NCBI RefSeq assembly: GCF_003991155.1
Contig: NZ_CP031293.1
DNA: 64,000 nt
DNA from: Escherichia coli
GTDB lineage: Bacteria > Pseudomonadota > Gammaproteobacteria > Enterobacterales > Enterobacteriaceae
Strand: one strand, 5' to 3'
Position 1 is the stretch's first letter; each line of letters opens with the position of its first letter. Below, piece after piece: positions 1,780 to 33,762 of this stretch. The translations under genes were made by a program, and so were the position numbers. The notes below the pieces were generated by a model. The model saw only the letters and a list, made by a program, of their open reading frames with translations, did no database searches and had not been told where the DNA came from.

Positions 1780-3642
1780 GCAGTGCGTCAGCGGGCGGCA
1801 GTTTTACCTGGGGTGCTGGCAGAGGTGGTTATGGCAGCGCCAGCCGCGATAATATCCACAGCAACTATGATTCCGTTAATGAGCAGAGCGGTATTTTCGC
1901 AGGCCGGGGTTATTTTGATATCACTGTGGGGAATCACACTCAGCTCGATGGTGCGGTGATTGCTTCGACAGCACCTGCCGACAGGAACTCGCTGGACACC
2001 GGTACTCTGGGCTGGTCGGATATCCATAACCAGGCAGACTATAAAGCCAGCTATACCGGAATCAGTTTATCGGGTGGCTCAGGGATGTCAGCCAGCCAGA
2101 TGGTGGCCTCAAATGCAATAGCCGGTGCGGCGAACGCACTTACCGGTATGTCCGGCAGCAGTGGACATGCTGAAGGTACCACGTCATCCGCCATCAGCGG
2201 CGGAAATCTCATTATCCGTGATAAGGAGAGTCAGAAGCAGGATATTGCCGGGCTCAGCCGGGACCCGGAAAACGCCAACGGCAGCATTGCACCGATATTT
2301 GACAAGGAGAAAGAACAGAAGCGTCTGCAGGAAGCGCAGGTTATCAGCCAGATTAGCGGTCAGATGAGTAATATCGTAATGACGTATGGCGAAACTGAAG
2401 CGATGAAAGCAGCCTGGAAAGAGCATCCTGGCATGAGCGATGCACAGTTGCGGGAGACTCCGGAATACAGAGAGGTCATGAAAGGCTACGGTACGGGCAG
2501 TTCGCCGCAGATGGTGGTACAGGCCATCACGGGCGTGCTGGGCGGACTGAATGCAGGGAACCCGGGGCAGGTATTGGCGGGCGGTCTGAATCCGGCAGTG
2601 GCACAGCTTATAAAACAGTCCACCGGCGATAACCGGGAAGCAAACCTGATGGCTCACGCAGTCTGGGGTGCACTTGCCGCACAACTGGGCGGAAACAATG
2701 CGGCTTCCGGTGCTGCTGGGGCATTCAGTGGTGAACTTGCAGCCTGGTATATCATTGATAACTACTACGGTGGTCGTACCGATAACCTGAGTGAACAGGA
2801 ACGTCAGCAAATCAGCATGCTGGCCACCATTGCCTCTGGTATTGCGGGGGGACTTGCAGGCAACAGTACGGCGTCTGCCGGTACGGGTGCACAGGCAGGA
2901 ACTCGGCTGAAAACAATATGCTGAACGTGATAGCCACTGAAACAGCAGCTAATACGGCAGCAGCAATAGCTGGTGCTACAGGTAATGCCAGTAAGGATAC
3001 CGGGAATGATAATAGCTGGGATACCGGTGGTGTTACGCTGGCTACGGGAACAGTGTGCTGTACGTGATCCGAGTCGCGATGGCACCCGAGGACCGGGGCA
3101 TGTGCTGAATGGCGACAATACAGACGGAAACAAACAGCCGAATCTGGGCAAAGACGTAGCGAGCGCAACGGATAAGGATAAAGCTGAGCTTGGTGGTGCA
3201 GGTGCTGGAATACCGGGGGGGATGGGGACCGGATAATGAAGAAAAAGCCCGTCATCAGGAGGTTCAGCAACAACGATTTGATGAACTGAGTAAAATATAT
3301 GATAAAAGTCACCCGGCCGGAGAGTTAACGGTGGATGGGCAGACTATCAGGCAGAGTTCGGTAAGTAACCGTTATGGTACGACGAAAGTGTTTGAAAGCC
3401 AGACTTTGACGGATAAACAGATCCACAATTACGCACAGCAACTGGCAGGCGATACACCGCTGAAAGAGGTAAAATCGGGAATCTACACGTCTAAACTATC
3501 AGATGGTTCGGTAATAACACTTAGAAACATATCTACATCAGAAGGTCAGACAGGCGCTCGTTGGACTATAGATATTCGTAATAACCAAAAGCTTACTGAA
3601 CTGGGGAATAAATATTCACGTGTGGAGATTAAGTTCAAATGA
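1780..3642 (+). pseudogene. cdiA: Orphan cdiA-CT module 1: 5-prime-truncated CdiA fragment with C-terminal toxin domain, interrupted by at least two frameshifts
   Basis: ORF 1668..2924 encodes a Gly/Ala-rich CdiA pretoxin region; (A)ENN motif at 2906..2917 is in a different frame; toxin ORF 3190..3642 in a third frame; homopolymer G7 at 3214..3220; left end abuts the IS66 remnant. Confidence 0.7.
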
Positions 3643-3995
3643 TTACTGAGTTAAGTGAAAGAGAATACAAGGAGTTGACAGACGCTGCAGAGGGACAGAC
3701 TCTTGATGCTATTTTGTGTTATTCAGTTCCTGATATTCACCCTGCAGAGTTTAGTTTTGCAGATAGAAGAGAAATCTTTTTTTGGGCATTAACCCGTCTT
3801 CTGAAAGAAGGGCGTATCAAACTCGCCAAGCACGGTAAGTTTTTGGAAGGAAGTGTTGACGAGCAGGTTGAGCGTTTTCGACAGGCATTTCCGAAAACAG
3901 AAGAAGAGATGGAAGACGGTATCTGGTTTTTTGATGAGAGTTGTCCGGGGGGGGCTGTTTGGGTGCTTGAAGATGGCTCTCTCGAATGGACCTGA
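3639..3995 (+). CDS. cdiI: CdiI-type immunity protein for module 1 (118 aa, intact)
   Basis: Start overlaps the toxin stop (ATGA at 3639-3642); small acidic AT-rich ORF immediately 3-prime of a CdiA-CT domain. Confidence 0.65.
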
Positions 3996-5112
3996 TAACC
4001 CCTTCACAGCGCAGGATGCGGCGCAGCGAGCGTATAACAACGATATGGCGGCCTCAGTTTTTGGTACCGGAGGGAACGATACAGGCTACAACGGCAGCGG
4101 TACAGGGACTGGCCGGCGGTAATCTGAGTGCAGCCCTGGCAGGTGGTGCAGCACCGTATCTGGCCGAAGTGGTGAAAACCATGACCACAGACCCGGTTAC
4201 CGGTGAGGTGAATAAGGCTGCAAATGTGGCTGCTCATGCCGTGGTGAATGCCGCACTGGCTGTGGCACAGGGAAATAACGCTCTTGCCGGTGCTGTAGGT
4301 GCAGCCACCGGCGAGGTGGTGGGAATGATAGCCACACAGATGTACGGTAAGCCGGTGAGTGAACTGAGCGAGACAGAGAAGCAGACGGTCTCGACACTGG
4401 CAACGGTTGCTGCTGGCCTGGCCGGTGGTCTGGTGGGCGACTCGGGGCTTCAGCGGTAGCCGGCGCACAGTCAGGTAAGACGACTGTTGAGAATAATTTA
4501 CTTGGCGGTAGTGAAGATGCTCAGGCTGCGTGGATACGCCAGCATGGTATCGACATGGCAACATGTGCAGAAAACCCTTCTGGTGCCGCCTGCCAGAAAG
4601 CAATGAATGAGAGGGATGCTGTAGGGCTGGCTCTGGCAACAGGTACAGTGGCACTACTCCCCGGTAGTGCTCAGGCTGTGTGGGGACTGGGAGCAAGTGC
4701 GAATGCTGGTATCAGTTATCTGGCTGATGGTACTGTAGATCCGACAAACGCAGCCATTGCAGGCTGGGTGAATGTGTTCAGCATGGGTAATGGCCTGGCG
4801 GGGACTGTGGGCTGGAATGCGGCAGGTGGTGCGCTGGGTAACTGGATTGACAACAAAGATCCTCTGTCTGGTGCAATTTCAAATGGTATCGGTTCTGCTG
4901 CCGGGTATGGTATCGGTAAAGGTATTACTTGGGGGACAGATAATATTACGAATGCTGTAGGAAAATGGGTGACAAATGGCTGGGATCCTAAGTACGATCC
5001 AACATGGATAAAATATGCTGAAGTAAATCGTAACGATATCATTCGAGAAGGCATGAAACCGAGCAATGTTCTTGGAACTGCTGGAGATATTGGCGGTTCT
5101 ATAGGATCCTAG
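3986..5112 (+). pseudogene. cdiA: Orphan cdiA-CT module 2: CdiA pretoxin fragment, VENN motif, Gly-rich C-terminal toxin domain; frameshifted; no immunity ORF downstream
   Basis: ORF 3986..4459 (..[10 protein letters not shown]..) then frame change; GKTTVENNLLGG at 4474..4506 (VENN 4486..4497) in frame with ORF 4555..5112; nothing coding in 5113..5230. Confidence 0.7.
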
Positions 5113-5230: not shown

Positions 5231-5644
5231 TCACATTATCGTCCACTCCGACTTTGCGCAACTACTGTAGAGTGGTGTACTCCGCGGCTTCTTTGAGGAT
5301 CTCAACTTCCATGTTTTTTTACCCAGCAAGGGCTGTAACTCTTTTATTTTTATAGCGGCAGCCAGTTCTGAGGCAGGAACAACATCCTCTCCGGTAGTAA
5401 CAGCAGCGAGACTTCCTTCCAGGTATTGTTTTTTCCACTTAAACAACAGACTGGGCTGAATACCATGCAAATGCGCCACATGGGACACCCTCATGCCAGG
5501 CTCCGTTGTCTGCTGAATAATGGCAATTTTTTCCTGAGGAGTTTTACGTTTACGAAGCTCCTGCCCCAGCAAAGTTCCAGTTATCTCAAAATTAGAACTA
5601 GTGTTAGACATATATCCAAGCCTATCTCTTATTTTAAGATACAT
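5231..5644 (-). mobile_element. IS transposase OrfA-like HTH protein (IS66/IS3-type accessory protein), solitary, with a frame change at an A7 run
   Basis: ..[78 protein letters not shown] then out of frame; a -1 shift at the A7 run (plus-strand T7 at 5315..5321) restores the conserved ending [16 protein letters not shown]; no cognate transposase ORF adjacent. Confidence 0.6.
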
Positions 5645-5671
5645 CCACTGTCTGGCGTTTCAAGGGGCGCT

Positions 5672-6049
5672 TCAAGTTTTTTCAGACAGTTGAACTAGTA
5701 TACCAATACATTCTTGTTCAGCATCAATGATACATGCTTGGTATGTCGGGAAAAAAACAGAGGTTTCTTTTACAATATATCCACAATCATAACATTGATA
5801 CCATTTCCAGCCTTTTTCCTGAATATAGGAAATATGTAGAAAAAGTGGCAAGACCGATTCGTCTGAGTATCCCTGTTTTTTAGCATTTTCAATGCATAAC
5901 AATTGCGAATTATATGCGTTATCTGATTGAGACAAAAGATATCCATTTTTCTCATGACAATACCATCTCCATTTATTGTCATCAGTCTTATAAAATTTCC
6001 ATATTAATCTCTGATTTCCAGATATCTTATAAATCATAATATACTCCAC
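5672..6049 (-). CDS. Hypothetical protein (125 aa), AT-rich; weak resemblance to DUF1508/YegP-type repeat
   Basis: Intact ORF; sequence KFYKTDDNKWRWYCHEKNGYLLSQSDNAYNSQLLCIENAKKQG loosely resembles the YegP-family motif; no function assignable. Confidence 0.4.
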   Translation of the reverse strand: MEYIMIYKISGNQRLIWKFYKTDDNKWRWYCHEKNGYLLSQSDNAYNSQLLCIENAKKQGYSDESVLPLFLHISYIQEKGWKWYQCYDCGYIVKETSVFFPTYQACIIDAEQECIGILVQLSEKT

Positions 6050-6079
6050 TCCCCAAGGAGACGGCCCTGGGGAAGGTAA

Positions 6080-7444
6080 TCAGTGTTCTTTTATATATGC
6101 GGCTCTGTGACGTTCAAGTTCAATTGCACCACGATGTGATAACCAGCAGAAAATGATGCAACAAATAATACCGCAGCCAAGAAGATAAAATCCGCCATGC
6201 CAGCCAATATGATCGACCATAATACCAAACAGGCTGGTGCCCAGAGACGCACCGAAGATATAGCTCATAAAACCGCGTAAGCCTACTGCAGAACCAACAG
6301 CAAAGCTGGGAACGATCTCCATAGTCTGAACGGAAGCCAGAAATTGTGGAACGTAAATCAGGCAACCAACAATGGCAGCAAAAATTGTCACCATAAACAG
6401 CGATTCACTTTTCCAGTAGCCAATCAGGCAAATGAAAATCAGCGCCATACAAATCATCGCCAATGGCATACGACGCCCTTTAAACAGTTTGTCTGACAAC
6501 CAACCGGCAAGTAGCGTGGAAGGGATTGCGGCCCATTCAAAAAATAAAAACGCGACGCTCATTTGTTCTTTAGAAAAATGTTTCACCGTCAGCAGATAAA
6601 TAGGCAACCAGCTAATCATCCCGAAGCGTACCATGTATACAAATACGTCAACCAGTGAGACATACCAGGCATTTTTATTGCGTAATACATAAGTGCAGAA
6701 AATCTGAAAGGCACTCATGTTTTCTGGTGCTTTTACCGTCTGTCGGGTATTCAGGACGACTTTTTCTTCCGGCATCATCTCTTCCAGAGAGGGTAGACCT
6801 TCCTGACGTGGGGAACCTTTACCGAGAATCAGCACAATTACCGCAAAAACGATGGCCACGCAGGCCGGAACGATATAGCTCGCACTTTGCCAGTGCTCGC
6901 TGCCGAGTAGGGCAAAAGCGGCACCAACAATGGGTGCAACAATACCACCACCGACGTTATGAGAGATATTCCAGAAAGCACCAACCCGACCACGCTCCCG
7001 GCGAGGGAACCAGTTAGCAATAGTGATGAAAGAAGGACCAACGCCCATTCCCTGGAAAAGACCATTCAGAATAACCAATACCGCAAAAATCCAGAATGCG
7101 GTGCTGAATCCCAGGCCAACGTTAACGATGGCACATAACACCAGCCCACACGCCATAAAGACTTTCGGACTGGCTTTATCGGCAAGGCTACTCATCACTC
7201 CTTTGCTGATACCATAGGCGATAAGCATACAGCTACTCAGTACGCCAATTTGTGTGGCGCTGAGATCTAATTGCTCTTTAAGATAAGGCGTCGATAAGGT
7301 GAAATTATTACGCACGATATAGTATGCAAGATACCCCAGAAATACACTAAGTAACGCCTGCATACGATAGCGACGATATGTCACCTGAATTTTCTCCGCC
7401 GGAACACTATCCGCCGCTTGCCCCGTTTTAAATATTGATAACAT
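6080..7444 (-). CDS. pgtP: Phosphoglycerate transporter PgtP (organophosphate:phosphate antiporter, UhpT/GlpT family)
   Basis: 454-aa ORF with 12-TM MFS features and close match to remembered Salmonella PgtP; divergent from pgtCBA. Confidence 0.85.
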   Translation of the reverse strand: MLSIFKTGQAADSVPAEKIQVTYRRYRMQALLSVFLGYLAYYIVRNNFTLSTPYLKEQLDLSATQIGVLSSCMLIAYGISKGVMSSLADKASPKVFMACGLVLCAIVNVGLGFSTAFWIFAVLVILNGLFQGMGVGPSFITIANWFPRRERGRVGAFWNISHNVGGGIVAPIVGAAFALLGSEHWQSASYIVPACVAIVFAVIVLILGKGSPRQEGLPSLEEMMPEEKVVLNTRQTVKAPENMSAFQIFCTYVLRNKNAWYVSLVDVFVYMVRFGMISWLPIYLLTVKHFSKEQMSVAFLFFEWAAIPSTLLAGWLSDKLFKGRRMPLAMICMALIFICLIGYWKSESLFMVTIFAAIVGCLIYVPQFLASVQTMEIVPSFAVGSAVGLRGFMSYIFGASLGTSLFGIMVDHIGWHGGFYLLGCGIICCIIFCWLSHRGAIELERHRAAYIKEH

Positions 7445-7535
7445 GTCTTCACCTGTATTTTATATTGATATGAACACTTGGAGTATTCTGACAATGAGAG
7501 TTATATAATTGAGATGAAACATCAAACTGAAAAAA

Positions 7536-7553
7536 TGTGTCACAATTGACACA
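7536..7553. promoter_or_regulatory. Perfect inverted repeat TGTGTCA-caat-TGACACA in the pgtP/pgtC divergent intergenic region (candidate operator)
   Basis: Read directly from sequence; 7-bp arms, 4-bp spacer. Confidence 0.3.
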
Positions 7554-7842
7554 AATTAATAAAATCAAAGCCTGTTTTTGACCCATTTTATTGATGCATA
7601 GACAGGGTAGATTTATGCTTTATCTGTTTTATTGTTAGCATGTGCGGATATTAACAAATCTCATGCTGATTATCGGGTAATCACTGATTAATATATTAAC
7701 GCTCTCTTTGAGCAGATGTGTTATCAGACGAAGTGTCTGAAACGGGTAATTTTTGTCTCAATGCGATTTTTGCGGTGTATTAATATTTATGACCTGGATC
7801 ACAAACCGATTTTTTAGCTGGTGCGAAATCGGCATCAAAACC

Positions 7843-9060
7843 ATGATTCTTTTACTGTTGTTGATGGATACCGGGGCCGTCAGGGCTCAACGAAATGAAC
7901 TGGTGATGGCCACCACATTCTCACCCGGAGCTACCGCGTGGATAATACAGCGCTGGCAAACAGAGCCTGAGTCGGTAATGATCCGTACGCTTAACCGCAC
8001 CAGTGCCTCACTGGAACAGTTGCTTGATACGGCCAACGTAGAAAACGTCGATCTGATCCTGACTTCATCACCAATGCTGCTCCAGCACCTTCAGGAGCAC
8101 CAGAAACTTGCCCCGTTTGATGATGCACCCGCAGAAAGCCAAAATCTGGTGCCGGAGTCGATCCGTGCAACCTCCGTTGCAGTAGCAATATCAGGTTTTG
8201 GTCTGCTCATTAATCGTCCGGCGCTTTCTGTAAAACACCTTCCTGCCCCTGCTGACTGGGACGATCTTGCTTTGCCGATCTATCAGGACGCTTTATTGAT
8301 GAGTAGTCCGTCGCGTTCAGATACTAACCATTTAATGGTTGAGTCATTACTACAGCAAAAAGGCTGGGTGAAAGGATGGGAAACGTTGCTGACAAGTGCA
8401 GGAAACCTGGTGACAATCTCCTCCCGCAGTTTTGGCGTAGCCGATAAAATAAAAAGCGGACTCGGCGTTGCCGGCCCCGTTATCGATAACTATGCTAATT
8501 TACTGTTAAATGACCCCCATCTCTCTTTTACCTATTTCCCCCGGTCTGCGGTATCTCCCACCTACGTTGCAATTCTCAAGAAAAGCCCACACGCCGATGC
8601 AGCCCGTCGCTTTATTCACTACCTGTTAAGTCCGAAAGGACAGCGTATTCTGGCCGATGCCAATACAGGAAAATATCCGGTGACACCACTTGCCGCAGAC
8701 AACCCGCGGGCAACGCAACAACAGCTCCTGATGAATCAACCCCCGCTGAATTATCACCTTATCCTGAAACGTCAGCGTCTGGTGCAGCGCTTGTTTGATA
8801 CGGCAATTAGCTTTCGGTTAGCACAGCTAAAAGATGCCTGGCGAGCGCTGCACAGTACCGAGGCACGCCTGAAGAAACCATTACCAGAAATACGTGCACT
8901 GTTAACACAAGTGCCCGTTGCAGCGGCCAGCAGTGAAGATCCCTTCTGGCTGGCACAGTTCGATAACAAAAGCTTTGCCGAGCAGCAAATGATGGAATGG
9001 CAACTCTGGTTTCTGAATAACCAGCGCCTGGCGATAAAAAAACTGGAAGAGCTGAAATGA
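7843..9060 (+). CDS. pgtC: PgtC, phosphoglycerate transport regulatory protein (periplasmic-binding-protein-like)
   Basis: ORF 7753..9060; likely start at internal Met 7843 before a signal-peptide-like segment (MILLLLLMDTGAVRA); stop overlaps pgtB start; start uncertain. Confidence 0.7.
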   Translation: MILLLLLMDTGAVRAQRNELVMATTFSPGATAWIIQRWQTEPESVMIRTLNRTSASLEQLLDTANVENVDLILTSSPMLLQHLQEHQKLAPFDDAPAESQNLVPESIRATSVAVAISGFGLLINRPALSVKHLPAPADWDDLALPIYQDALLMSSPSRSDTNHLMVESLLQQKGWVKGWETLLTSAGNLVTISSRSFGVADKIKSGLGVAGPVIDNYANLLLNDPHLSFTYFPRSAVSPTYVAILKKSPHADAARRFIHYLLSPKGQRILADANTGKYPVTPLAADNPRATQQQLLMNQPPLNYHLILKRQRLVQRLFDTAISFRLAQLKDAWRALHSTEARLKKPLPEIRALLTQVPVAAASSEDPFWLAQFDNKSFAEQQMMEWQLWFLNNQRLAIKKLEELK

Positions 9061-11066
9061 AAAACATAACGCTGTGGCAGCGTTTAAGACAGGTCAGTAT
9101 CAGTACCAGCTTACGTTGCGCATTTCTGATGGGGGCACTACTGACCCTGATTGTCAGTAGTGTCAGTCTGTATTCATGGCATGAACAAAGCTCACAAATT
9201 CGTTACTCGCTGGATGAGTATTTTCCCCGTATTCACTCTGCTTTCCTTATTGAAGGGAACCTGAATCTGGTGGTAGACCAGCTAAATGAATTTTTGCAGG
9301 CTCCCAACACCACGGTGCGATTGCAACTTCGTACCCAGATTATTCAGCATCTCGACACCATAGAACGGCTTAGTCGGGGGCTGTCATCCCGGGAACGCCA
9401 ACAACTGACGGTCATTTTGCAGGACAGTCGATCACTGTTATCCGAGTTGGATCGTGCGCTTTACAACATGTTTTTACTACGGGAAAAGGTGAGTGAGCTA
9501 TCAGCGAGGATTGACTGGTTACACGATGATTTTACTACCGAGCTTAATTCTTTAGTGCAGGATTTCACCTGGCAGCAGGGAACGCTGCTGGATCAAATCG
9601 CCTCCCGACAGGGCGATACGGCGCAATACCTGAAGCGATCTCGTGAAGTGCAAAATGAACAGCAGCAGGTTTATACCCTGGCACGCATTGAAAATCAGAT
9701 TGTTGACGATCTGCGTGACAGACTCAATGAACTCAAATCAGGACGTGATGACGACACACAGGTGGAAACTCATCTCCGTTATTTTGAAAATCTGAAAAAA
9801 ACGGCAGATGAAAATATACGTATGCTGGATGACTGGCCTGGCACCATTACCCTGAGGCAGACTATCGATGAATTGCTGGATATGGGAATCGTAAAAAACA
9901 AAATGCCGGATACGATGCGTGAATATGTCGCCGCCCAAAAAGCCTTAGAGGATGCCAGTCGCACCAGGGAAGCGACACTGGGTCTCTTCAGAACGTTACT
10001 GGAAGCGCAGCTTGGCAGTACTCATCAACAAATGCAGATGTTTAATCAACGAATGGAACAAATTGTTCGCGTTAGCGGTGGGCTGATCCTAGTGGCGACA
10101 GCACTGGCGTTACTGCTGGCATGGGTATTCAACCATTATTTTATCCGCTCACGGTTGGTGAAACGCTTTACCCTACTGAATCAGGCCGTTGTGCAAATTG
10201 GTCTGGGAGGCACGGAAACGACTATTCCTGTTTATGGGAATGATGAACTGGGGAGAATTGCAGGATTATTACGCCATACTCTCGGGCAGCTCAATGTGCA
10301 AAAACAGCAACTTGAACAAGAAATTACCGATCGAAAGGTGATAGAAGCCGATCTGCGTGCCGCCCAGGACGAACTGATTCAGACAGCGAAGTTGGCGGTA
10401 GTCGGGCAAACGATGACCACGCTGGCCCACGAGATCAATCAGCCGCTAAATGCGCTGTCGATGTATCTGTTTACAGCCCGCAGGGCCATTGAACAGACCC
10501 AGATAGAACAGGCCTGCATGATGCTTGGTAAAGCCGAAGGGGTGATTAGTCGCATTGACGCCATTATCCGTTCACTACGGCAGTTTACCCGGCGCGCCGA
10601 ACTGGAAATATCACTCCATGCCATTGATTTAGCAAAGATGTTCAGTGCGGCCTGGGAACTTCTGGCCATGCGTCATCGCCCTTTGCAAGCTACGCTTGTT
10701 CTGCCACAAGGTACAGCCACAGTTTCAGGCGATGAGGTCAGAACCCAGCAGGTACTGGTTAACGTACTGGCGAATGCGCTTGATGTTTGTGGGCAAGGCG
10801 CTGTCATTACCGTTAACTGGCAAATGCAGGGTAAAACGCTGAACGTATTCATTGGCGATAATGGCCCGGGCTGGCCTGAGGCATTGTTGCCTTCGTTATT
10901 GAAGCCGTTTACCACCAGTAAAGAAATAGGACTGGGTATTGGTCTTTCAATTTGTGTGTCGTTAATGGAGCAAATGAAAGGGGAATTACGGCTGGCATCA
11001 ACGATGACCAGGAATGCCTGTGTGGTACTGCAATTCAGACTAACGGATGTGGAAGATGCTAAGTAG
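9057..11066 (+). CDS. pgtB: PgtB sensor histidine kinase
   Basis: 669-aa ORF with N-terminal TM/sensor region, H-box (LAHEINQPLNAL) and ATPase G-boxes (GDNGPGW, GLGIGLS); 4-bp overlap with pgtC. Confidence 0.85.
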   Translation: MKNITLWQRLRQVSISTSLRCAFLMGALLTLIVSSVSLYSWHEQSSQIRYSLDEYFPRIHSAFLIEGNLNLVVDQLNEFLQAPNTTVRLQLRTQIIQHLDTIERLSRGLSSRERQQLTVILQDSRSLLSELDRALYNMFLLREKVSELSARIDWLHDDFTTELNSLVQDFTWQQGTLLDQIASRQGDTAQYLKRSREVQNEQQQVYTLARIENQIVDDLRDRLNELKSGRDDDTQVETHLRYFENLKKTADENIRMLDDWPGTITLRQTIDELLDMGIVKNKMPDTMREYVAAQKALEDASRTREATLGLFRTLLEAQLGSTHQQMQMFNQRMEQIVRVSGGLILVATALALLLAWVFNHYFIRSRLVKRFTLLNQAVVQIGLGGTETTIPVYGNDELGRIAGLLRHTLGQLNVQKQQLEQEITDRKVIEADLRAAQDELIQTAKLAVVGQTMTTLAHEINQPLNALSMYLFTARRAIEQTQIEQACMMLGKAEGVISRIDAIIRSLRQFTRRAELEISLHAIDLAKMFSAAWELLAMRHRPLQATLVLPQGTATVSGDEVRTQQVLVNVLANALDVCGQGAVITVNWQMQGKTLNVFIGDNGPGWPEALLPSLLKPFTTSKEIGLGIGLSICVSLMEQMKGELRLASTMTRNACVVLQFRLTDVEDAK

Positions 11067-12303
11067 TGAATATTCGATTCTGCTGATTGATGATGATGCA
11101 GATGTGCTGGACGCCTACACACAGTTACTTGAACAGTCAGGCTATCGGGTTTTTGCCTGTAACAATCCTTTTGAGGCGCAGGCGTGGATACAACCAGACT
11201 GGCCAGGCATTGTGCTAAGTGATGTGTGTATGCCTGGCTGCTCTGGTATCGATTTGATGATGTTATTCCACCAGGATGATCAACAGATCCCCATTCTGCT
11301 TATCACCGGGCACGGCGACGTGCCAATGGCAGTTGATGCGGTAAAAAAAGGCGCGTGGGATTTTTTGCAAAAACCGGTTGATCCCGGCAAATTGCTTTCT
11401 CTGGTTGAAGAGGCGCTACGCCAGCGTCAATCAATCATTGCGCGTCGTCAGTATTGCCAACAGACATTGCAGGTGGAGTTGATAGGGAGAAGTGAATGGA
11501 TAAATCAGTATCGGCGACGTTTACAGCAGTTGTCTGAGACAGATATTGCCGTCTGGCTCTACGGTGCCCCTGGCACAGGACGGATGACCGGTGCACGTTA
11601 TCTGCACCAATTTGGACGTAATGCACAAGGCGAATTTGTCTACCGCGAGCTGACACCAGACAATGCACCACAGCTTAATGATTTCATTGCGCTGGCTCAG
11701 GGGGGAACATTAGTGCTCAGCCATCCTGAACACCTGACGCGTGAACAGCAGTACCATCTGGTTCAGTTACAAAGCCAGGAACACAGACCTTTTCGCCTGA
11801 TTGGTATTGGAGACACCTCGCTGGTCGAGCTGGCCGCCAGCAACCATATCATCGCGGAGCTCTATTACTGCTTTGCAATGACACAAATCGCTTGCCTGCC
11901 ATTAACTCAACGCCCCGACGATATTGAACCACTGTTTCGCCACTACCTTTGTAAGGCATGTCAACGGCTTAACCATCCTGTTCCGGAAGTGGGAAAAGAG
12001 ATGCTCAAAGAGATGATGCGCCGCATGTGGCCAAATAATGTGCGAGAGCTGGCCAATGCAGCAGAACTGTTTACTGTAGGAATATTACCGCTGGCAGAAA
12101 CAGCAAACCCGTTGATGCACGTCGGAACCCCGGCACCGCTTGACAGGCGAGTGGAGGACGCTGAGCGACAGATAATCACAGAGGCGCTTAATATCCATCA
12201 GGGGCGTATCAATGAGGTTGCTGAATATTTACAAATCCCACGGAAAAAACTCTATCTCAGAATGAAAAAATACGGTCTTAGTAAGGAGCATTATAAAATT
12301 TAA
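11047..12303 (+). CDS. pgtA: PgtA, NtrC-family (sigma-54-dependent type) response regulator
   Basis: Receiver domain (LLIDDD...D), AAA+ central domain (GAPGTGR), C-terminal HTH; overlaps pgtB by 20 nt. Confidence 0.85.
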   Translation: MWKMLSSEYSILLIDDDADVLDAYTQLLEQSGYRVFACNNPFEAQAWIQPDWPGIVLSDVCMPGCSGIDLMMLFHQDDQQIPILLITGHGDVPMAVDAVKKGAWDFLQKPVDPGKLLSLVEEALRQRQSIIARRQYCQQTLQVELIGRSEWINQYRRRLQQLSETDIAVWLYGAPGTGRMTGARYLHQFGRNAQGEFVYRELTPDNAPQLNDFIALAQGGTLVLSHPEHLTREQQYHLVQLQSQEHRPFRLIGIGDTSLVELAASNHIIAELYYCFAMTQIACLPLTQRPDDIEPLFRHYLCKACQRLNHPVPEVGKEMLKEMMRRMWPNNVRELANAAELFTVGILPLAETANPLMHVGTPAPLDRRVEDAERQIITEALNIHQGRINEVAEYLQIPRKKLYLRMKKYGLSKEHYKI

Positions 12304-12324
12304 CCATCAGACTTGTGAGCTTGT

Positions 12325-12552
12325 TCATAATGTTATGTCATTTGTGTGATTCATAGACATCGTTTCAATTTTCTCAGCAAGTTCAAAGTAGTGTTCCATC
12401 GGAGTTTTACCGTTGTGAGCGCTATGAGGACGTTCCCAGTTATAGTAATGCTGCCATTCTGCCAGCAGTTCCTTCAGGTCATCAGCAGAAAGATCTACGG
12501 TAGCGTAAAACTCAGCTTTGTTCACGATCACCAACATCGTAAATGGCTCCAC
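12325..12552 (-). pseudogene. Transposase C-terminal fragment (rve/integrase-core type, IS3-like)
   Basis: 75-aa ORF containing ...HYYNWERPHSAHNGKTPMEHY..., the conserved C-terminal motif of DDE integrase-core transposases; no N-terminal part. Confidence 0.55.
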
Positions 12553-12854
12553 CTCGATACCTGCCAGTTCATGAGATTAGTCGAATCCGATGTTCCCCGC
12601 GTTATGTGCCCGAAGCGTTGTTGCCAGCCCCTGCCTGTAGCATGGACTGGTCCGGCAGCCGGTACTCGCTGCTGTTCGAATTGTTCGTGCTCTCATGGCT
12701 AAAAATCAGCACCGTTGATGCCGTCAGGAAACAACTTAAAATTAGCTGGAATGCCGTTGACGGCATTATGACTCGTGTGGTTAAGCGCGGTCTGTCCCGG
12801 ATGAAAAAGCCTTTATTAGCACGTCATATGAATGTAGACGAAGTCGCCTTTAAA
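12543..12854 (+). pseudogene. Transposase N-terminal fragment (family uncertain) disrupted by the IS66-family insertion
   Basis: ORF 12543..12908 runs into the IS66 left inverted repeat; after removing the IS the frame ends ...DEVAFKKV*. Confidence 0.4.
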
Positions 12855-12907: not shown

Positions 12908-13585
12908 ATGTCCATCATTTTTAATGGACACTATCGTATGGAATACCGGACCTGGATCACCGAAGCTTTACGTCTTCACTTTGAAGAACATTTACCACGG
13001 ATTGTGGCCGGACGTCGCCTGGGCGTACCAAAATCAACAGTTTGTGGTATGTTCGTGCGCTTCCGCAAAGCTGGCCTTTCATGGCCTCTGCCCGCAGGTA
13101 TGTCGGAGCGGGAACTTGATGCCCGTCTTTACGGGAGTGCCTCCACAGTACCTGTCGTACTTACTGAAAACACCGTTATGTCCGAAGTCCCGGTGGTAAA
13201 AAAACGTCCCCGGCGGCCTAATTTTCCTTATGAGTTTAAAATCGCCTTAGTGGAGCAGTCACTGCAGCCCGGAGCCTGTGTGGCGCAGATCGCCCGTGAA
13301 AACGGAATCAACGATAACCTGCTCTTCAACTGGCGCCATCAATACCGGAAAGGTGGCCTGCTGCCTTCCGGAAAAAATATGCCTGCACTGCTTCCCGTGA
13401 CGTTAACGCCGGAGCCGGATAATAAAATCCCGGCTCCGGCACAGGAACCAGAGCAGATAAATACACCGTCCGACAGTCTGTGCTGTGAGCTGGTTCTGCC
13501 GGCCGGAACTCTCAGGCTGAAAGGTGAACTGACACCGGCGTTATTACAGACACTTATCCGCGAAATGAAAGGGAGCAGCCACTGA
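12908..13585 (+). CDS. tnpA: IS66-family accessory protein TnpA (ORF as tracked; true start may be internal)
   Basis: Contains ..FPYEFKIALVEQSLQPGACVAQIARENGINDNLLFNWRHQYRKGG.. typical of IS66 OrfA. Confidence 0.7.
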   Translation: MSIIFNGHYRMEYRTWITEALRLHFEEHLPRIVAGRRLGVPKSTVCGMFVRFRKAGLSWPLPAGMSERELDARLYGSASTVPVVLTENTVMSEVPVVKKRPRRPNFPYEFKIALVEQSLQPGACVAQIARENGINDNLLFNWRHQYRKGGLLPSGKNMPALLPVTLTPEPDNKIPAPAQEPEQINTPSDSLCCELVLPAGTLRLKGELTPALLQTLIREMKGSSH

Positions 13586-13932
13586 TGATATCTCTCCCTG
13601 CAGGTTCGCGTATCTGGCTGGTTGCCGGTATCACCGACATGCGAAATGGCTTTAACGGCCTGGCCTCAAAAGTTCAGAACGTCCTGAAGGATGACCCGTT
13701 CTCCGGACACCTGTTCATCTTCCGCGGACGCCGGGGTGACCAGATAAAAGTGTTGTGGGCTGACAGCGACGGACTGTGCCTCTTCACCAAACGCCTGGAG
13801 CGGGGCCGCTTCGTCTGGCCGGTCACCCGTGACGGCAAGGTGCACCTTACTCCGGCCCAGTTATCCATGCTTCTTGAGGGCATCGACTGGAAACATCCAA
13901 AACGAACGGAACGCACTGGCATCCGCATATAA
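13585..13932 (+). CDS. tnpB: IS66-family TnpB
   Basis: MISLPAGSRIWLVAGITDMRNGFNGLA... is the canonical IS66 OrfB start; ATGA overlap with tnpA. Confidence 0.85.
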   Translation: MISLPAGSRIWLVAGITDMRNGFNGLASKVQNVLKDDPFSGHLFIFRGRRGDQIKVLWADSDGLCLFTKRLERGRFVWPVTRDGKVHLTPAQLSMLLEGIDWKHPKRTERTGIRI

Positions 13933-13951
13933 CCCGTTGTAAAGTGAGGAT

Positions 13952-15523
13952 ATGGACACCTCACTTGCTCATGAGAACGCCCGCCTGCGGGCACTGTTGC
14001 AGGCGCAACAGGACACCATCCGCCAGATGGCCGAATACAATTGCCTGCTCTCACAGCGGGTGGCGGCTTATGCTTCTGAAATCAACCGGCTGAAGGCGCT
14101 GGTTGCAAAACTGCAGCGCATGCAGTTCGGTAAAAGCTCAGAAAAACTTCGCGCAAAAACCGAACGACAGATACAGGAAGCACAGGAGCGAATCAGCGCA
14201 CTTCAGGAAGAAATGGCGGAAACACTGGGTGAGCAATATGACCCGGCACTGCCATCTTCCCTGCGCCAGTCTTCAGCCCGTAAACCGTTACCGGCTGCAC
14301 TTCCCCGTGAATCCCGGGTTATCCGGCCGGAAGAGGAATGCTGCCCGGCTTGTGGTGGCGAACTCAGTTCTCTGGGATGTGATGTGTCAGAGCAACTGGA
14401 GCTTATCAGCAGCGCCTTTAAGGTTATCGAAACACAACGTCCGAAACTGGCCTGTTGCCGGTGCGACCATATCGTGCAGGCACCAGTACCTTCAAAACCC
14501 ATTGCACGCAGTTATGCCGGAGCGGGGCTTCTGGCTCATATCGTCACCGGGAAGTATGCAGACCATCTGCCGTTATACCGCCAGTCAGAAATATACCGTC
14601 GTCAGGGCGTGGAACTGAGCCGCGCCACGCTGGGGCGCTGGACCAGTGCCGTTGCTGAACTGCTGGAGCCGCTGTATGACGTGCTGCGCCAGTATGTGCT
14701 GATGCCCGGTAAAGTCCATGCGGATGATATCCCCGTTCCGGTCCAGGAGCCGGGCAGTGGTAAAACAAGAACTGCCCGGCTGTGGGTTTACGTCCGTGAT
14801 GACCGTAACGCCGGTTCACAGATGCCCCCGGCGGTCTGGTTCGCGTACAGCCCGGACCGGAAAGGTATCCATCCACAGAATCACCTGGCCGGTTACAGCG
14901 GTGTGCTTCAGGCCGATGCTTACGGTGGTTACCGGGCGTTATACGAATCCGGCAGAATAACGGAAGCCGCGTGTATGGCCCATGCCCGGAGAAAAATCCA
15001 CGATGTGCATGCAAGAGCGCCTACCGATATCACCACGGAAGCCCTGCAGCGTATCGGTGAACTGTATGCAATCGAGGCAGAGGTCCGGGGATGTTCAGCA
15101 GAACAGCGTCTGGCGGCAAGAAAAGCCAGAGCTGCGCCACTGATGCAGTCGTTGTACGACTGGATACAGACTCAGATGAAAACACTGTCGCGTCACTCGG
15201 ATACGGCAAAAGCGTTCGCATACCTGCTGAAACAGTGGGGTGGCCTGAACGTGTACTGCAGTAATGGCTGGGTGGAAATCGACAACAACATCGCAGAGAA
15301 CGCCTTACGGGGAGTAGCCGTAGGCCGGAAAAACTGGCTGTTCGCAGGTTCCGACAGCGGTGGTGAACATGCGGCGGTGTTGTACTCGCTGATCGGCACA
15401 TGTCGTCTGAACAATGTGGAGCTAGAAAAGTGGCTGCGCTACGTCATTGAGCATATCCAGGACTGGCCGGCAAACCGGGTACGCGATCTGTTGCCCTGGA
15501 AAGTTGATCTGAGCTCTCAGTAA
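13952..15523 (+). CDS. tnpC: IS66-family transposase TnpC
   Basis: 523-aa ORF with N-terminal leucine zipper, CxxC zinc ribbon (CPACGG) and DDE domain. Confidence 0.85.
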
Positions 15524-28898: not shown

Positions 28899-28950
28899 GA
28901 TAATTGCGTATATTCTGTAATTAAGATAATTGCATATCTTCTGCAATTAA
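28899..28950 (+). repeat. Two tandem imperfect 26-bp direct repeats (GATAATTGCGTATATTCTGTAATTAA / GATAATTGCATATCTTCTGCAATTAA)
   Basis: Read directly from sequence immediately 3-prime of the outer-membrane protein gene; 3 mismatches between copies. Confidence 0.6.
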
Positions 28951-28959
28951 ACAGAAATA

Positions 28960-28995
28960 CCCTGCAGTCTATTACTGCAGGGTTGTCTTTTATCT
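28960..28995 (+). terminator. Intrinsic terminator (CCCTGCAG / CTGCAGGG stem, T-rich tail)
   Basis: Inverted repeat followed by TTGTCTTTTATCTGTTTT. Confidence 0.6.
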
Positions 28996-29062
28996 GTTTT
29001 ACAGATAATTTCTGATTTTTATTATCCTGTTCTCTTCATAATAATGTTGTCGATATACTCCG

Positions 29063-30565
29063 ATGAATATCAGAAAACTGTTTTGTCCGGGCAACACCCC
29101 CCGGATTTTATTGTTTTTATTCTTTTTTGTTGTTTCTGCAATAACCACAATTGCATGCGGATACACTGAGAAGAATGCAACAGGAAATGTGCTGCTTCTG
29201 TTTCTCCTTCTGCTCCTTGCATACAGAAATACCCTCACATCCATTACAGCGCTGTTATTTCTGTTCTGTTGTGCACTGTATGCGCCTGCCGGTATGACGT
29301 ACGGTAAAATCAACAACAGTTTTATTGTCGCGTTGTTGCAGACCACAACTGATGAGGCAGCGGAGTTTACCGGGATGATTCCTGTTTATCATTTTCTGGT
29401 CAGTGCCGCGATTCTGGTATTCATGGTGATTTTCTGGCGAACACACCACCGCGGTCACCGTAACTGGCTGGCACTGCTGCTGTTCGTATTATGCTCAGTA
29501 AACAGCTGGCCGTTGCGGATGGTTAAAGGAACTGTTGTGGGGACAACTGACACATTGCGTGAAATGCAACATTATAAACAACTGAGTCAGCACGGGGCTG
29601 ACAACTGGAAAATCCTGCCGGGAACACCGTTATATGACACAATTGTTATTGTCACTGGTGAGAGTGTGCGCAGGGATTATATGTCGGTATATGGCTATCC
29701 CGTGCCAACCACGCCGTGGCTGAATACAGCTCCCGGTTTATTTATTGACGGCTATACATCGGCAGCAGCCAGTACCGTACCTTCCCTGAGCCGGACACTG
29801 ATTTATGACTATGAGCAGAACCCTGACTCCGGCAACAACATGGTGGCGCTGGCAGCAAAAGCAGGATACAGCACATGGTGGATATCCAATCAGGGAAAGC
29901 TGGGGGAGCATGATACACGCATCTCTGTTATTGCTTCTGATGCGGAGCATACCGTTTTCCTCAAGAAAGGCAGCTTTGCTTCCCGTAAAACGGATGACAT
30001 GTTGTTGTTACAGGAAACAGAACGTGCACTGGCGGATAAATCCTCTCCGAAGGTGATATTCCTGCACATGATGGGGTCTCATCCGAACCCGTGTGACCGG
30101 CTTCACTCCTGGCCGAATCATTACCTGGAGCAGTATCCCCGAAAGGTTGCCTGTTACCTCGCCAGCATCAGTAAACTGGATAACTTTCTCGGTCAGCTTG
30201 ATGGTATCCTTCGCCGGCATTCCCGTCATTTCGTCATGCTTTACTTTTCTGACCATGGGCTGTCGGTCAGCGACAGTGCTAATCCTGTTCATCATGATGG
30301 TCATGTGCAGGGAGGCTACAGCGTTCCCCTGATTATTACCGCCAGTGACATCACGTCTCATCAGTCCGTCAGCAGAAAAATCAGTGCCCGTCATTTCGCA
30401 GGTATTTTTCAGTGGCTGACCGGCATTCGTACTGAAAATATACCGCCATTCAATCTACTGACAGACGAAGATAATGAACCCATTATGGTTTTTAACGGAG
30501 AGAGGAATGTACCGGCAGACAGTCTGAAACCGCAGCCTCTGATTCTTCCGGTCAAGGGAAAATAA
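29063..30565 (+). CDS. Sulfatase-family phosphoethanolamine transferase (EptA/YhbX/OpgE-like), 500 aa
   Basis: N-terminal multi-TM region followed by a periplasmic alkaline-phosphatase-superfamily domain (..IVIVTGESVRRDYMSVYGY.., ..HMMGSHPNP.., ..YFSDHG..). Confidence 0.7.
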   Translation: MNIRKLFCPGNTPRILLFLFFFVVSAITTIACGYTEKNATGNVLLLFLLLLLAYRNTLTSITALLFLFCCALYAPAGMTYGKINNSFIVALLQTTTDEAAEFTGMIPVYHFLVSAAILVFMVIFWRTHHRGHRNWLALLLFVLCSVNSWPLRMVKGTVVGTTDTLREMQHYKQLSQHGADNWKILPGTPLYDTIVIVTGESVRRDYMSVYGYPVPTTPWLNTAPGLFIDGYTSAAASTVPSLSRTLIYDYEQNPDSGNNMVALAAKAGYSTWWISNQGKLGEHDTRISVIASDAEHTVFLKKGSFASRKTDDMLLLQETERALADKSSPKVIFLHMMGSHPNPCDRLHSWPNHYLEQYPRKVACYLASISKLDNFLGQLDGILRRHSRHFVMLYFSDHGLSVSDSANPVHHDGHVQGGYSVPLIITASDITSHQSVSRKISARHFAGIFQWLTGIRTENIPPFNLLTDEDNEPIMVFNGERNVPADSLKPQPLILPVKGK

Positions 30566-32223: not shown

Positions 32224-33489
32224 TCACCTTTTCAGTGGATTGTTAACTTTTGCATATTCAAACGGACTGATACCCTTATCTCTGTTTGCATCCAGAAAAT
32301 CTGCCCACCATTGCAGCATAAGCCGACGTTCTTCCAGATGTTCTGCTTTATGAATATACGCGGCACGTACTCCGTTGCGCTCCTGATGACTCATCTGACG
32401 TTCAACCGCATCTCTTGACCATAAACCGGATTCAATCAATGCACTGCACGCCATCGCCCGGAATCCATGGCCACAGACTTCCTTGGTTGTGTCATACCCC
32501 ATCACTCTGAGGGCCTTATTTACGGTATTTTCACTGATTGGTTTACGCGGGTCATGTGCTCCCGTAAAGATCAGACCATTTTCACCAGCCCATGTCTGAA
32601 GTTCTGTCAGTATGGCTACAGCCTGTTTGCTGAGTGGCACAAGATGTGGTGTTCGCATCTTGGAGCCCCGGTGTGAGAATTTTACCCCTGGCAGAGGTTT
32701 GCGTTCGGCTGGAATAGTCCACATGGCATTGTCAATATCAATTTCAGACCAGCGGGCGTATCTGAGTTCACTGGAACGAATAAAAACCAGTAAATTCAGC
32801 ATAACGGCAAGCCGGGTGACAGGCTGACCTTTATAACTGTTAATACGCGACAGAAGTTCAGGCAGACGTGAAAGATCAAGAGCGGGGCGATGCTGGCGTT
32901 TTACCGTAGTCAATGCGCCAGCCATATCCAGAGCAGGATTATATCTGATGATGCCAGACTGTACGGCATAACGCATTACGGCAGATATTCTTTGCTGCAG
33001 ACGACTGGCGATTTCATAAATTTGTTTAGCTTCTGCAGCACGAACAGGGATAAGCAGATCCGGGGTATTGAGTGTTGTGATATCCCGGTTGCCGATAAAG
33101 GGGAAAACGTGTGTTTCGAGGCTTTTGAGTACTTTATCGCTGTGTGATTGTGCCCATTGTTTATTACTGGCATGCCAGCGTCGTGCAATATGTTCAAAAG
33201 AGAGCTGTAAATCAGGGACTACTTTTTTAGCTCTTTTCTGTTCGCAAGGGTCAATCCCCTCCGAAATCAGTTTTCGGGCCTCATCCCGTTTTGTACGAGC
33301 TTCGGAGAGAGAAACTTCTGGATACACACCAAGTGCCAGAGTCTTCTCCTTACCCAGAATACGATAACGGAGACGCCAGTAACGGGAACCATTAGGATGT
33401 ACCAGCAGGAACATGCCAGCCCCGTCAGTGAGTTTATAAGCCTTGTCAGTGGGCTTTGCAGCCCGGATTTTTGCGTCAGTCAGTGCCAT
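32224..33489 (-). CDS. P4-type (CP4-57-like) tyrosine integrase
   Basis: 421-aa ORF MALTDAKIRAAKPTDKAYKLTDGAGMFLLVHPNGSRYWRLRYR... with C-terminal catalytic region; immediately downstream of tRNA-Phe in the same orientation. Confidence 0.92.
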   Translation of the reverse strand: MALTDAKIRAAKPTDKAYKLTDGAGMFLLVHPNGSRYWRLRYRILGKEKTLALGVYPEVSLSEARTKRDEARKLISEGIDPCEQKRAKKVVPDLQLSFEHIARRWHASNKQWAQSHSDKVLKSLETHVFPFIGNRDITTLNTPDLLIPVRAAEAKQIYEIASRLQQRISAVMRYAVQSGIIRYNPALDMAGALTTVKRQHRPALDLSRLPELLSRINSYKGQPVTRLAVMLNLLVFIRSSELRYARWSEIDIDNAMWTIPAERKPLPGVKFSHRGSKMRTPHLVPLSKQAVAILTELQTWAGENGLIFTGAHDPRKPISENTVNKALRVMGYDTTKEVCGHGFRAMACSALIESGLWSRDAVERQMSHQERNGVRAAYIHKAEHLEERRLMLQWWADFLDANRDKGISPFEYAKVNNPLKR

Positions 33490-33652
33490 AGTTCAGCCTT
33501 CTGAATGCGTTAAAGAGGGTACAAATTCTGTCGAACTGGGGTATACCCGCAATTATACCCACACAATGGGGTTGATGTGGGGGGAATCTGGTTGAGTTCG
33601 GTAGAATTGATTTGTAGGCAGAACGCTTAAATCGTGGTGTTCTGAAACGAAA

Positions 33653-33680
33653 AACGGACCTCCGTGGAGGTCCGTTTATA
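33653..33680 (-). terminator. Intrinsic terminator just 3-prime of tRNA-Phe
   Basis: Minus-strand CGGACCTCC-acg-GAGGTCCG hairpin followed by TTTTT. Confidence 0.6.
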
Positions 33681-33686
33681 TGAATT

Positions 33687-33762
33687 TGGTGCCCGGACTC
33701 GGAATCGAACCAAGGACACGGGGATTTTCAATCCCCTGCTCTACCGACTGAGCTATCCGGGC
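33687..33762 (-). tRNA. pheV: tRNA-Phe (GAA anticodon), 76 nt including CCA
   Basis: Reverse complement reads GCCCGGATAGCTCAGTCGGTAGAGCAGGGGATTGAAAATCCCCGTGTCCTTGGTTCGATTCCGAGTCCGGGCACCA; locus assigned as pheV from flanking yqgA/speC. Confidence 0.95.

Follow-up and report, generated by a model that had tools for sequence, protein, structure and literature searches.

The segment between positions 6,080 and 12,303 of the 64,000-nucleotide stretch of Escherichia coli DNA analysed here (the window) carries an intact phosphoglycerate transport system, made up of the transporter gene pgtP and the regulators pgtC, pgtB and pgtA, and had been correctly recognised as such in the initial annotation. 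The locus is horizontally mobile cargo of a pheV pathogenicity island in extra-intestinal-type E. coli. We consider it very probable that this intact, mobile Pgt system also works by the mechanism that its orthology with the Salmonella system suggests. It is an ordinary locus in the sense that annotation and literature already cover it: RefSeq names its genes, the module has been published from pheV islands, and the PDB contains part of PgtA.

The pgt locus and its proposed mechanism

The open reading frames lie at 6080-7444 (minus strand) and, on the plus strand, at 7753-9060, 9057-11066 and 11047-12303, exactly as claimed for a complete four-gene locus in which the transporter gene diverges from pgtC-pgtB-pgtA. 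All four proteins are full length when compared with profiles and orthologues. PgtP, PgtB and PgtA each exceed their NCBI equivalog cut-offs, with family assignments far beyond chance, while the NCBIfam profile search returned no PgtC model among its matches. The gene named pgtC by RefSeq lies directly upstream of pgtB, and the two share the sequence ATGA, an overlap of 4 nt that had been noted before and that points to translational coupling. PgtC is 78-87% identical to the product of the same-position gene in 25 loci.

The Hong laboratory reportedly worked on the pgtP-pgtCBA phosphoglycerate transport system of Salmonella enterica from the 1980s to 1995. The pgt locus of that species agrees with the E. 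coli locus in its four genes and their divergent layout, in the coupled overlaps of 4 nt and 11 nt, and in the control-region blocks. We compared the two directly, taking S. enterica subsp. diarizonae rather than serovar Typhimurium LT2 as the reference. The loci are collinear, with about 74% nucleotide identity and protein identities of 91% for PgtP, 85% for PgtC, 82% for PgtB and 80% for PgtA. The E. coli copy differs in that it is carried by an island, flanked by IS sequences and accompanied by an additional small open reading frame.

From the orthology with the Salmonella system, we propose a mechanism in four steps. PgtC and the periplasmic domain of PgtB, about 305 residues long, would detect external 2-phosphoglycerate (2-PG), 3-phosphoglycerate (3-PG) or PEP. 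PgtB would then phosphorylate itself on His458 and hand the phosphate on to PgtA at its receiver Asp, and phosphorylated PgtA would bind the divergent control region and switch on pgtP. Finally PgtP, a member of the GlpT/UhpT family, would take in three-carbon phosphoesters against phosphate and so supply carbon and phosphorus. Exchange of phosphate for 2-PG, 3-PG and PEP, with induction by external phosphoglycerate, is extrapolated here from Salmonella experiments.

Salmonella pgtP mutants are unable to use 2-PG, 3-PG or PEP for carbon, and they show attenuation both in macrophages and in mice (PMC7873081). Growth with PGA or PEP as the only source of phosphorus likewise requires pgtP, whose transcription is under the control of a dedicated two-component system (PMC10715179). 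The Salmonella pgtP promoter has an additional regulator, VrpA, which is under CRP. Could the main benefit in E. coli then be the scavenging of phosphorus from organophosphates, rather than carbon from host glycolytic intermediates? We regard this as conceivable but rather unlikely. The phosphorus requirement in Salmonella is compatible with it, but glucose rescues the virulence defect of the Salmonella pgtP mutants, which indicates a carbon role (PMC7873081). Both roles can coexist, and the sequence does not discriminate between them. Through pgt, a subset of extra-intestinal, adherent-invasive and entero-invasive-type E. coli may gain access to glycolytic intermediates of the host (2-PG, 3-PG, PEP), an access that K-12-type strains do not have. 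In Salmonella the phosphoglycerate/PEP route matters for growth in macrophages, and the fitness role suggested for E. coli is carried over from such experiments on proteins with 80-91% identity.

Conservation among genera and spread within E. coli

Gene order and orientation are the same in 24 of 24 full-length loci from Klebsiella, Citrobacter, Pseudocitrobacter, Enterobacter, Cedecea and Salmonella. Across these loci from other genera the proteins are 75-92% identical to those in the window, PgtP being 88-92% identical to its orthologues. At the DNA level the identity to all sampled genera is approximately 71-79% and the synonymous sites are saturated. The values of pN (0.05-0.12) are far below that of pS (approximately 0.7) in the comparison with other genera, and the system has therefore been under strong purifying selection.

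A recent donor, be it Salmonella, Klebsiella or Citrobacter, was considered and rejected, given the uniform DNA identity of 71-79% and the saturation of synonymous sites. A recent import from Salmonella in particular is excluded because the copies of the Klebsiella oxytoca group and of Citrobacter are as close or closer. The description “Salmonella-type” thus holds for orthology and fails as a statement of recent origin. There is no flanking synteny with other genera, because DNA homology, also that with Salmonella, extends no further than the four genes themselves.

On the left side, a small open reading frame of 121 amino acids (5672-6037, minus strand), annotated in RefSeq as a hypothetical protein, has a GGAG Shine-Dalgarno sequence and lies 42 nt downstream of pgtP. 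It falls outside the homology with other genera and accompanies the pgt module solely in E. coli, inside a 98%-identical block that is common to strains EV36 and C8. A Pfam search of this frame with E-values as high as 10 produced no family, only noise below threshold. Next to it RefSeq annotates a frameshifted transposase remnant (5277-5584, minus strand), partly common to strain C8. Further left, orphan CdiA C-terminal toxin and immunity-like modules (1926-5112, plus strand) show matches to DUF596 and to a PT-VENN pre-toxin domain; in RefSeq they appear as VENN-motif proteins, situated downstream of a complete cdiBAI locus. On the right side, the stretch homologous to the pgt contexts of other E. 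coli stops at 12310-12342, and RefSeq annotates transposase and integrase-core remnants at 12370-12854. These are followed by a complete IS66-family element (12908-15523, plus strand) with tnpA, tnpB and tnpC, seen both by RefSeq and by Pfam (HTH_Tnp_1, TnpB_IS66, DDE_Tnp_IS66). The location between toxin modules and IS elements, as first described, is thereby borne out on both sides.

The attachment end of the island is found at 32224-33762 (minus strand), where RefSeq annotates a tyrosine recombinase as integrase next to tRNA-Phe (pheV). ARAGORN places the tRNA-Phe gene at 33687-33762, beyond which lie the core genes yqgA and speC. The pgt locus is thus situated approximately 21 kb inside a pheV-integrated island on the E. 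coli chromosome, with a pap operon adjoining. The window covers this end of the island, whose far end and direct repeat fall outside it. Besides pgt the cargo comprises cdi, pap and IS66, a mosaic of virulence genes and IS elements.

The proposal that pgt is island cargo gains from its distribution, as the 98%-identical module recurs on plasmids and in further island contexts. Among 5,426 complete E. coli genomes, 464 (8.6%) gave a pgt match, and matches also occur on large plasmids; 430 of the 464 carrier genomes hold at least 80% of the locus at 98-100% identity. In RefSeq, many complete E. coli genomes have pgtP, pgtC, pgtB and pgtA annotations that are 100% identical to those here. As a module of pheV islands, pgtABCP had already been published for PAI V of UPEC 536, and E. 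coli islands bearing it have been described as GI-pheV types (PMC11537424) and as AIEC PAI-IV variants (bioRxiv 10.1101/2024.09.04.611154). The E. coli GI-pheV islands share with ours the species, the pheV tRNA-Phe site and the module, which often adjoins pap or pix fimbrial operons. In PAI V of strain 536, pgt adjoins pix and K15 capsule genes, whereas here it lies between cdiBAI-derived orphan toxin modules and IS66/pap (papG-III). The contrast to strain 536 concerns the island mosaic and not the system.

The IS debris around the locus, together with E. coli copies that are truncated or disrupted by IS elements, could also mean that pgt is silent or decaying cargo, for example with host-specific regulatory inputs missing, and our literature search found no experiment on the E. 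coli pgt locus. This reading is improbable. Four full-length open reading frames retain intact catalytic motifs, the large majority of carriers (430 of 464) keep most of the locus at near-identity, and strong purifying selection against the other genera is accompanied by conservation of the control-region blocks.

Transporter and sensor proteins

PgtP (6080-7444, minus strand) is a 454-residue organophosphate:phosphate antiporter of the MFS class, identified as a phosphoglycerate/PEP transporter. The PgtP equivalog NF047787 (NCBIfam) gives 885.8 bits against a cut-off of 750 and aligns over positions 1-448 of its 451; the protein has approximately 12 hydrophobic segments and is matched by Pfam MFS_1. 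In the alignment with the structure of GlpT (PDB-code: 1PW4; E-value of 1.4e-91), the motifs YYIVRNNF, GISKGV, WNISHNVGGG and VYMVRFG of PgtP correspond to R45, K80, H165 and R269 of GlpT, which we take to be the Arg pair and the Lys and His of the substrate site as known for that structure. All of these positions are kept in PgtP.

A closer match to UhpABC/UhpT had been named as the observation that would speak against a Pgt identity. A mislabelled Uhp-like (hexose-phosphate) or GlpT-like (glycerol-3-phosphate) system can be dismissed: although PgtP belongs to the same antiporter family and aligns well with the GlpT structure, its scores of 370 bits with the GlpT models (cut-offs 632-748), 271.3 with UhpT (cut-off 497) and 238.5 with UhpC (cut-off 564) are far below what these models demand and below the 885.8 bits of the PgtP model, the regulators are of other types, and the locus is collinear with Salmonella pgt. 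UhpABC-UhpT of E. coli does share the logic of the Pgt system, namely an externally induced organophosphate:phosphate antiporter combined with a dedicated two-component system and a third sensing protein (PMC10715179). In the Uhp system this third protein, UhpC, is an MFS paralogue that acts as sensor, whereas PgtC has the fold of a periplasmic binding protein; the regulator classes differ as well, since PgtA shows a REC-AAA+-HTH_8 architecture, which is not of the UhpA type.

PgtC (7789-9060, plus strand) is a co-sensor resembling periplasmic solute-binding proteins, matched in Pfam by SBP_bac_6 (4.2e-29) and also by SBP_bac_11. Its N-terminus contains a hydrophobic, signal-like segment, and its distant relatives in the PDB are the iron- and PLP-binding proteins SfuA, YfuA and P5PA. 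PgtB (9057-11066, plus strand), whose start overlaps the pgtC stop, is a sensor histidine kinase of 669 residues with HAMP, HisKA and HATPase_c domains and scores 1068.5 bits with the equivalog NF047794 (cut-off 1000). Two hydrophobic segments, 15-33 and 339-357, flank the predicted periplasmic domain, and the phosphorylatable residue proposed above belongs to the H-box.

PgtA, the control region and the start codons

PgtA (11056-12303, plus strand) is a response regulator of 415 residues composed of a receiver domain (REC), a degenerate AAA+ domain and HTH_8, and reaches 726.2 bits with the equivalog NF047793 (cut-off 650). Pfam recognises Response_reg, Sigma54_activ_2, AAA_lid_14 and HTH_8, an NtrC-like architecture in common with NtrC, NtrC1, ZraR and NtrX. 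Its best full-length match in the PDB is an atypical NtrC relative, NtrX (PDB-code: 5M7N; E-value of 1.2e-29). Residues 140-284 are 100% identical to PDB entry 3N70, which is the central domain of the same PgtA. The sequence VLSDVCMP around the receiver Asp is invariant in the orthologues.

Compared with sigma-54 enhancer-binding proteins, the AAA+ domain is approximately 50 residues shorter. Its Walker A motif reads GAPGTGR, with Arg in place of Lys (GxxGTGR in 25 of 25 orthologues), the Walker B region reads SHPEH, and none of 25 PgtA orthologues has a GAFTGA-like motif. Pfam Sigma54_activat covers PgtA at positions 1-55 of its 168 only, and alignments with NtrC-family structures break off at around residue 195. 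Because PgtA has neither GAFTGA nor the Walker A lysine, it probably does not act through sigma-54; as both the loop that contacts sigma-54 and key residues for ATPase activity are lost, activation of pgtP most likely takes place at a sigma-70 promoter by a protein that descends from NtrC-type activators. The label “NtrC-type” is therefore apt for the architecture and probably misleading if it implies sigma-54 dependence, and we suggest that PgtA should not be counted among the sigma-54 activators. PgtA does not occur in two papers on the Salmonella sigma-54 regulon, and a literature search pairing PgtA with GAFTGA, which did not reach the older work on Salmonella regulation, found no match.

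The control region points the same way, as a sigma-54 promoter is lacking near the pgt locus. No -24/-12 element (TGGCAC-N5-TTGCW) with up to two mismatches is present in 7445-7842, and a sigma-54 promoter was accordingly rejected for the pgt control region. Across the whole window such matches number 39 against 43.6 expected, i.e. no more than chance. A generic sigma-70 scan of 5600-12800 gave 13 promoter-like sites against 11.9 in shuffled sequence, and we assigned no promoter from it because the counts were no richer than in the shuffles; the same was true of terminator-like sites over this range (10 against 7.4).

An alignment of 17 sequences reveals blocks that are conserved across genera within the otherwise diverged spacer between pgtP and pgtC (7445-7788). 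An inverted repeat, TGTGTCA-N4-TGACACA, is located at 7536-7553, approximately 100 nt upstream of the pgtP ATG, and is kept across the aligned genera as TG(T/G)GTCA-N4-TGAC(T/A)CA. A third conserved half-site, TTTTTGAC(C/T)CA (7575-7585, plus strand), may be a further regulator half-site and pairs with the arm at 7532-7545. The repeat and this neighbouring half-site are the best candidate for the binding site of a PgtA dimer, judging from their conservation; the proposed sigma-70 dependence is likewise suggested by conservation and by the loss of motifs in PgtA. The strongest-conserved non-coding block of the alignment is TGTGCGGATATTAACAAAT (7641-7659). Upstream of pgtC lies the block AAACGGGTAAnTTTTGTCTCAA (7740-7761, plus strand), whose TTGTCT could serve as a -35 element and is followed, at a distance of 17 nt, by a TAT-containing hexamer in every species examined.

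For the Pgt family generally, we lean towards a picture in which PgtA, an activator of NtrC descent, would neither couple to sigma-54 nor hydrolyse ATP any longer and would instead be switched by phosphorylation to activate sigma-70 transcription from the conserved TGTGTCA-N4-TGACACA repeat, and in which pgtC would be read from an invariant ATG that lacks a Shine-Dalgarno sequence, is possibly leaderless, and has been overlooked by current annotation.

Along with the reclassification of PgtA, two likely corrections of start codons are a small but useful residue of the analysis. The start of pgtC is most likely the conserved ATG at 7789, giving 423 residues. It is invariant in 17 of 17 aligned sequences, the following 18 nt are near-invariant, and the indels downstream are multiples of 3; no Shine-Dalgarno sequence precedes it. 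RefSeq places the start at 7843 (405 residues), while the TTG at 7753 is merely the start of the longest open reading frame and has no support. For pgtA, the overlap of 20 nt with pgtB that had been proposed needs the ATG at 11047, which in most other species runs immediately into TAA. The ATG at 11056 is conserved, is the choice of RefSeq and is most likely the true start, so that the overlap shrinks to 11 nt; the NF047793 profile aligns from residue 4 of the 418-residue version.

Gene identity and translation starts

We compared the proteins of the locus with curated family profiles, since the initial annotation had proposed a phosphoglycerate transport (pgt) system and named UhpABC/UhpT as the alternative match. 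The open reading frame list returns exactly the same four frames that had been described there: pgtP (6080-7444, minus strand), pgtC (7753-9060, plus strand, longest-ORF extent), pgtB (9057-11066, plus strand) and pgtA (11047-12303, plus strand, longest-ORF extent). PgtP, PgtB and PgtA reach 885.8, 1068.5 and 726.2 bits against equivalog cut-offs of 750, 1000 and 650, respectively, in the NCBI curated models, and their profile alignments run almost full-length, end to end. PgtC carries periplasmic solute-binding-protein domains (Pfam, SBP_bac_6 at 4.2e-29), PgtB has HAMP, HisKA and HATPase_c domains, and PgtA has receiver, AAA+-type and HTH_8 domains. For PgtP the next-best model is GlpT at 370 bits, while UhpT scores 271 bits, each far under its own cut-off. 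Because the three proteins exceed their equivalog cut-offs, UhpT and GlpT fall far below theirs and the domains fit, the locus is Pgt rather than Uhp, with no closer match to the latter.

The coupled overlaps described for the operon were half right. The 4-nt ATGA overlap between pgtC and pgtB is real. The 20-nt overlap between pgtB and pgtA requires the ATG at 11047, which is directly followed by TAA in most other species. The conserved pgtA start is ATG 11056, which is also the RefSeq start and is implied by the PgtA profile alignment opening at residue 4; the overlap is therefore most likely 11 nt.

The TTG at 7753, initially taken as the pgtC start, is merely the start of the longest ORF, and the RefSeq start, ATG 7843, is not conserved in other genera. 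A 17-sequence alignment shows almost no variation at any codon position of ATG 7789 or the 18 nt after it, and all indels downstream of this ATG are multiples of three. Because, in addition, the extension from 7789 encodes the charged N-region of a signal peptide, we prefer ATG 7789 over 7843 and 7753 as the probable pgtC start, which would place the RefSeq start 54 nt too far downstream. No Shine-Dalgarno sequence is present at ATG 7789. This, together with the near-invariance at every codon position, suggests a constraint at the RNA or DNA level in 7789-7842, possibly reflecting a leaderless or very short-leader mRNA.

Predicted function and control of pgtP

In Salmonella, cells need pgtP to grow in macrophages and to use 2-PG, 3-PG or PEP as carbon source (PMC7873081). 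The gene is also required for the use of PGA or PEP as phosphorus source, and a dedicated two-component system governs its transcription (PMC10715179). By orthology, Salmonella genetics and physiology support phosphoglycerate uptake as the function of the locus. PgtP aligns to the GlpT crystal structure and keeps the Arg, Lys and His positions of the substrate site. PgtC has a secreted binding-protein fold whose distant relatives bind iron and pyridoxal-phosphate. In PgtB, two membrane segments enclose a periplasmic domain of ~305 residues, and the H-box lies at His-458; in PgtA, the context of the receiver Asp is invariant. Combining these features with the Salmonella data, external phosphoglycerate would be sensed by PgtC together with PgtB, phosphotransfer would carry the signal to PgtA, PgtA would activate pgtP, and PgtP would exchange the phosphoester for phosphate. 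Candidate cis-elements kept across genera in the divergent spacer are an inverted repeat TGTGTCA-N4-TGACACA (7536-7553), a third half-site (7575-7585) and two further blocks (7641-7659 and 7740-7761).

The description of PgtA as NtrC-type holds for architecture and descent, but probably not for mechanism, given the absent GAFTGA motif and the Walker A Lys to Arg exchange. Compared with bona fide enhancer-binding proteins, its central domain (residues 140-284, 100% identical to PDB 3N70) is shorter and contains no GAFTGA motif; SHPEH occupies the expected Walker B position, and the Pfam model Sigma54_activat matches over no more than the first 55 of the model's 168 positions. GAFTGA is missing and Arg replaces the Walker A lysine in all 25 PgtA orthologues (AAA+ residues ~140-284). 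The pgtP/pgtC control region has no -24/-12 element, and PgtA is absent from the text of two papers on the sigma-54 regulon of Salmonella. We infer that activation of pgtP by PgtA would be sigma-70-dependent. PgtA homologues on some plasmid records are still annotated as "sigma-54 dependent transcriptional regulator" (H69, H70).

Orthologues in other genera

A scan of one genome per species found 25 loci in Klebsiella (oxytoca group), Citrobacter, Pseudocitrobacter, Enterobacter, Cedecea and Salmonella enterica subsp. diarizonae; one additional record is labeled Serratia. Every full-length locus has the identical layout, with pgtP divergent from pgtC-pgtB-pgtA, and its proteins share 88-92% (PgtP), 78-87% (PgtC), 77-84% (PgtB) and 75-85% (PgtA) identity with those of the window. 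For subsp. diarizonae the respective values are 91%, 85%, 82% and 80%. DNA homology with other genera (71-79%) extends from about 6110 to 12300, stopping where the outer genes end, with no common flank homology in the DNA comparison. Synonymous differences have reached saturation (pS ~0.7), against values of 0.05-0.12 for non-synonymous ones (pN). Taken together, the diverged DNA, the lack of a shared flank, the saturated pS and the low pN show, at the level of sequence comparison, strong purifying selection on the pgt genes and no recent import of the E. coli copy from any sampled genus. "Salmonella-type" is thus apt as a statement of orthology (collinear, 80-91% identical) and not as one of recent import.

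The locus of Citrobacter koseri NCTC10786 appears disrupted: the PgtP alignment does not begin until residue 93 and that of PgtB until residue 280, and PgtA ends at 366 aa, which could reflect pseudogenisation or assembly errors.

Island setting and mobility

Many complete E. coli chromosomes match the 7.2 kb around the locus at 100% identity, and RefSeq already annotates pgtP, pgtC, pgtB and pgtA in them. In strain FDAARGOS_1284 the surroundings of the locus agree with those in the window: upstream come a full cdiBAI locus and then orphan VENN-motif toxin fragments, while downstream come transposase debris, a complete IS66 and the pap operon with papG-III, followed by a tyrosine integrase, tRNA-Phe (33687-33762 in the window, ARAGORN) and the core genes yqgA and speC. 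Pfam confirms PT-VENN and DUF596 modules and IS66 genes in the window. From these surroundings, the pgt locus, between toxin modules and IS elements as originally noted, is cargo of a pheV-integrated island whose attachment end is ~21 kb away.

The original observation is confirmed and its interpretation supported, with minor corrections, and the presence of pgt on E. coli pheV islands is already known. A putative phosphoglycerate transport system was described in PAI V of strain 536, GI-pheV types including that of 536 carry pgt/pgtABCP as a module (PMC11537424), and adherent-invasive strains are reported to carry pgtP-pgtCBA as a variable part of their pheV island (bioRxiv 10.1101/2024.09.04.611154). 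Mouse-colonising clinical strains are likewise reported to carry pgtABCP (PMC10731797), and among genome-scale metabolic models of phylogroup B2, >30% reportedly include pgtP (PMC5996543).

Elsewhere on the island, 1926-5112 holds an array of orphan cdiA C-terminal toxin/immunity-like modules (PT-VENN, DUF596 and several hypothetical ORFs), with the full cdiBAI locus upstream of it positioned just outside the window. The segment that separates the pap operon from the integrase (~28141-30565) carries genes for an outer-membrane protein and a phosphoethanolamine transferase. Judging from positions in the matching RefSeq record, the window starts inside nanX (1-567); since nanX and nanY serve the uptake of sialic-acid derivatives, the island carries them as a second module of metabolic cargo.

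The 6.2-kb locus is matched in 464 of 5,426 complete E. coli genomes, at least 80% of it being covered in 430 of these at 98.3-100% identity, and a few copies are broken up or cut short by IS elements. Its neighbours vary from strain to strain: pap and ireA in EV36, genes for sugar utilisation plus a haemagglutinin locus in strain C8, of bovine origin, and on a plasmid a pgtCBA truncated by ISKpn26. The block common to these contexts extends from about 5179/5634 to 12310/12342 and includes a 121-aa ORF (5672-6037, minus strand) that has GGAG as its ribosome-binding site and lies 42 nt beyond the end of pgtP, past a small hairpin. This ORF, which matches no known Pfam family, accompanies the module in EV36 and C8 and is missing beside pgt in other genera.

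Large conjugative IncF plasmids (260-295 kb, from E. coli of human stool) carry the same allele at 98.2-98.3% identity, which means that the module moves between plasmids and islands of the chromosome. On the 294-kb plasmid pCFSAN029787_01 it lies at 219529-225752, flanked by IS600 and IS66, and on plasmid pCUPF09A ISKpn26 occupies the place of pgtP, leaving pgtCBA as an orphan regulatory operon.
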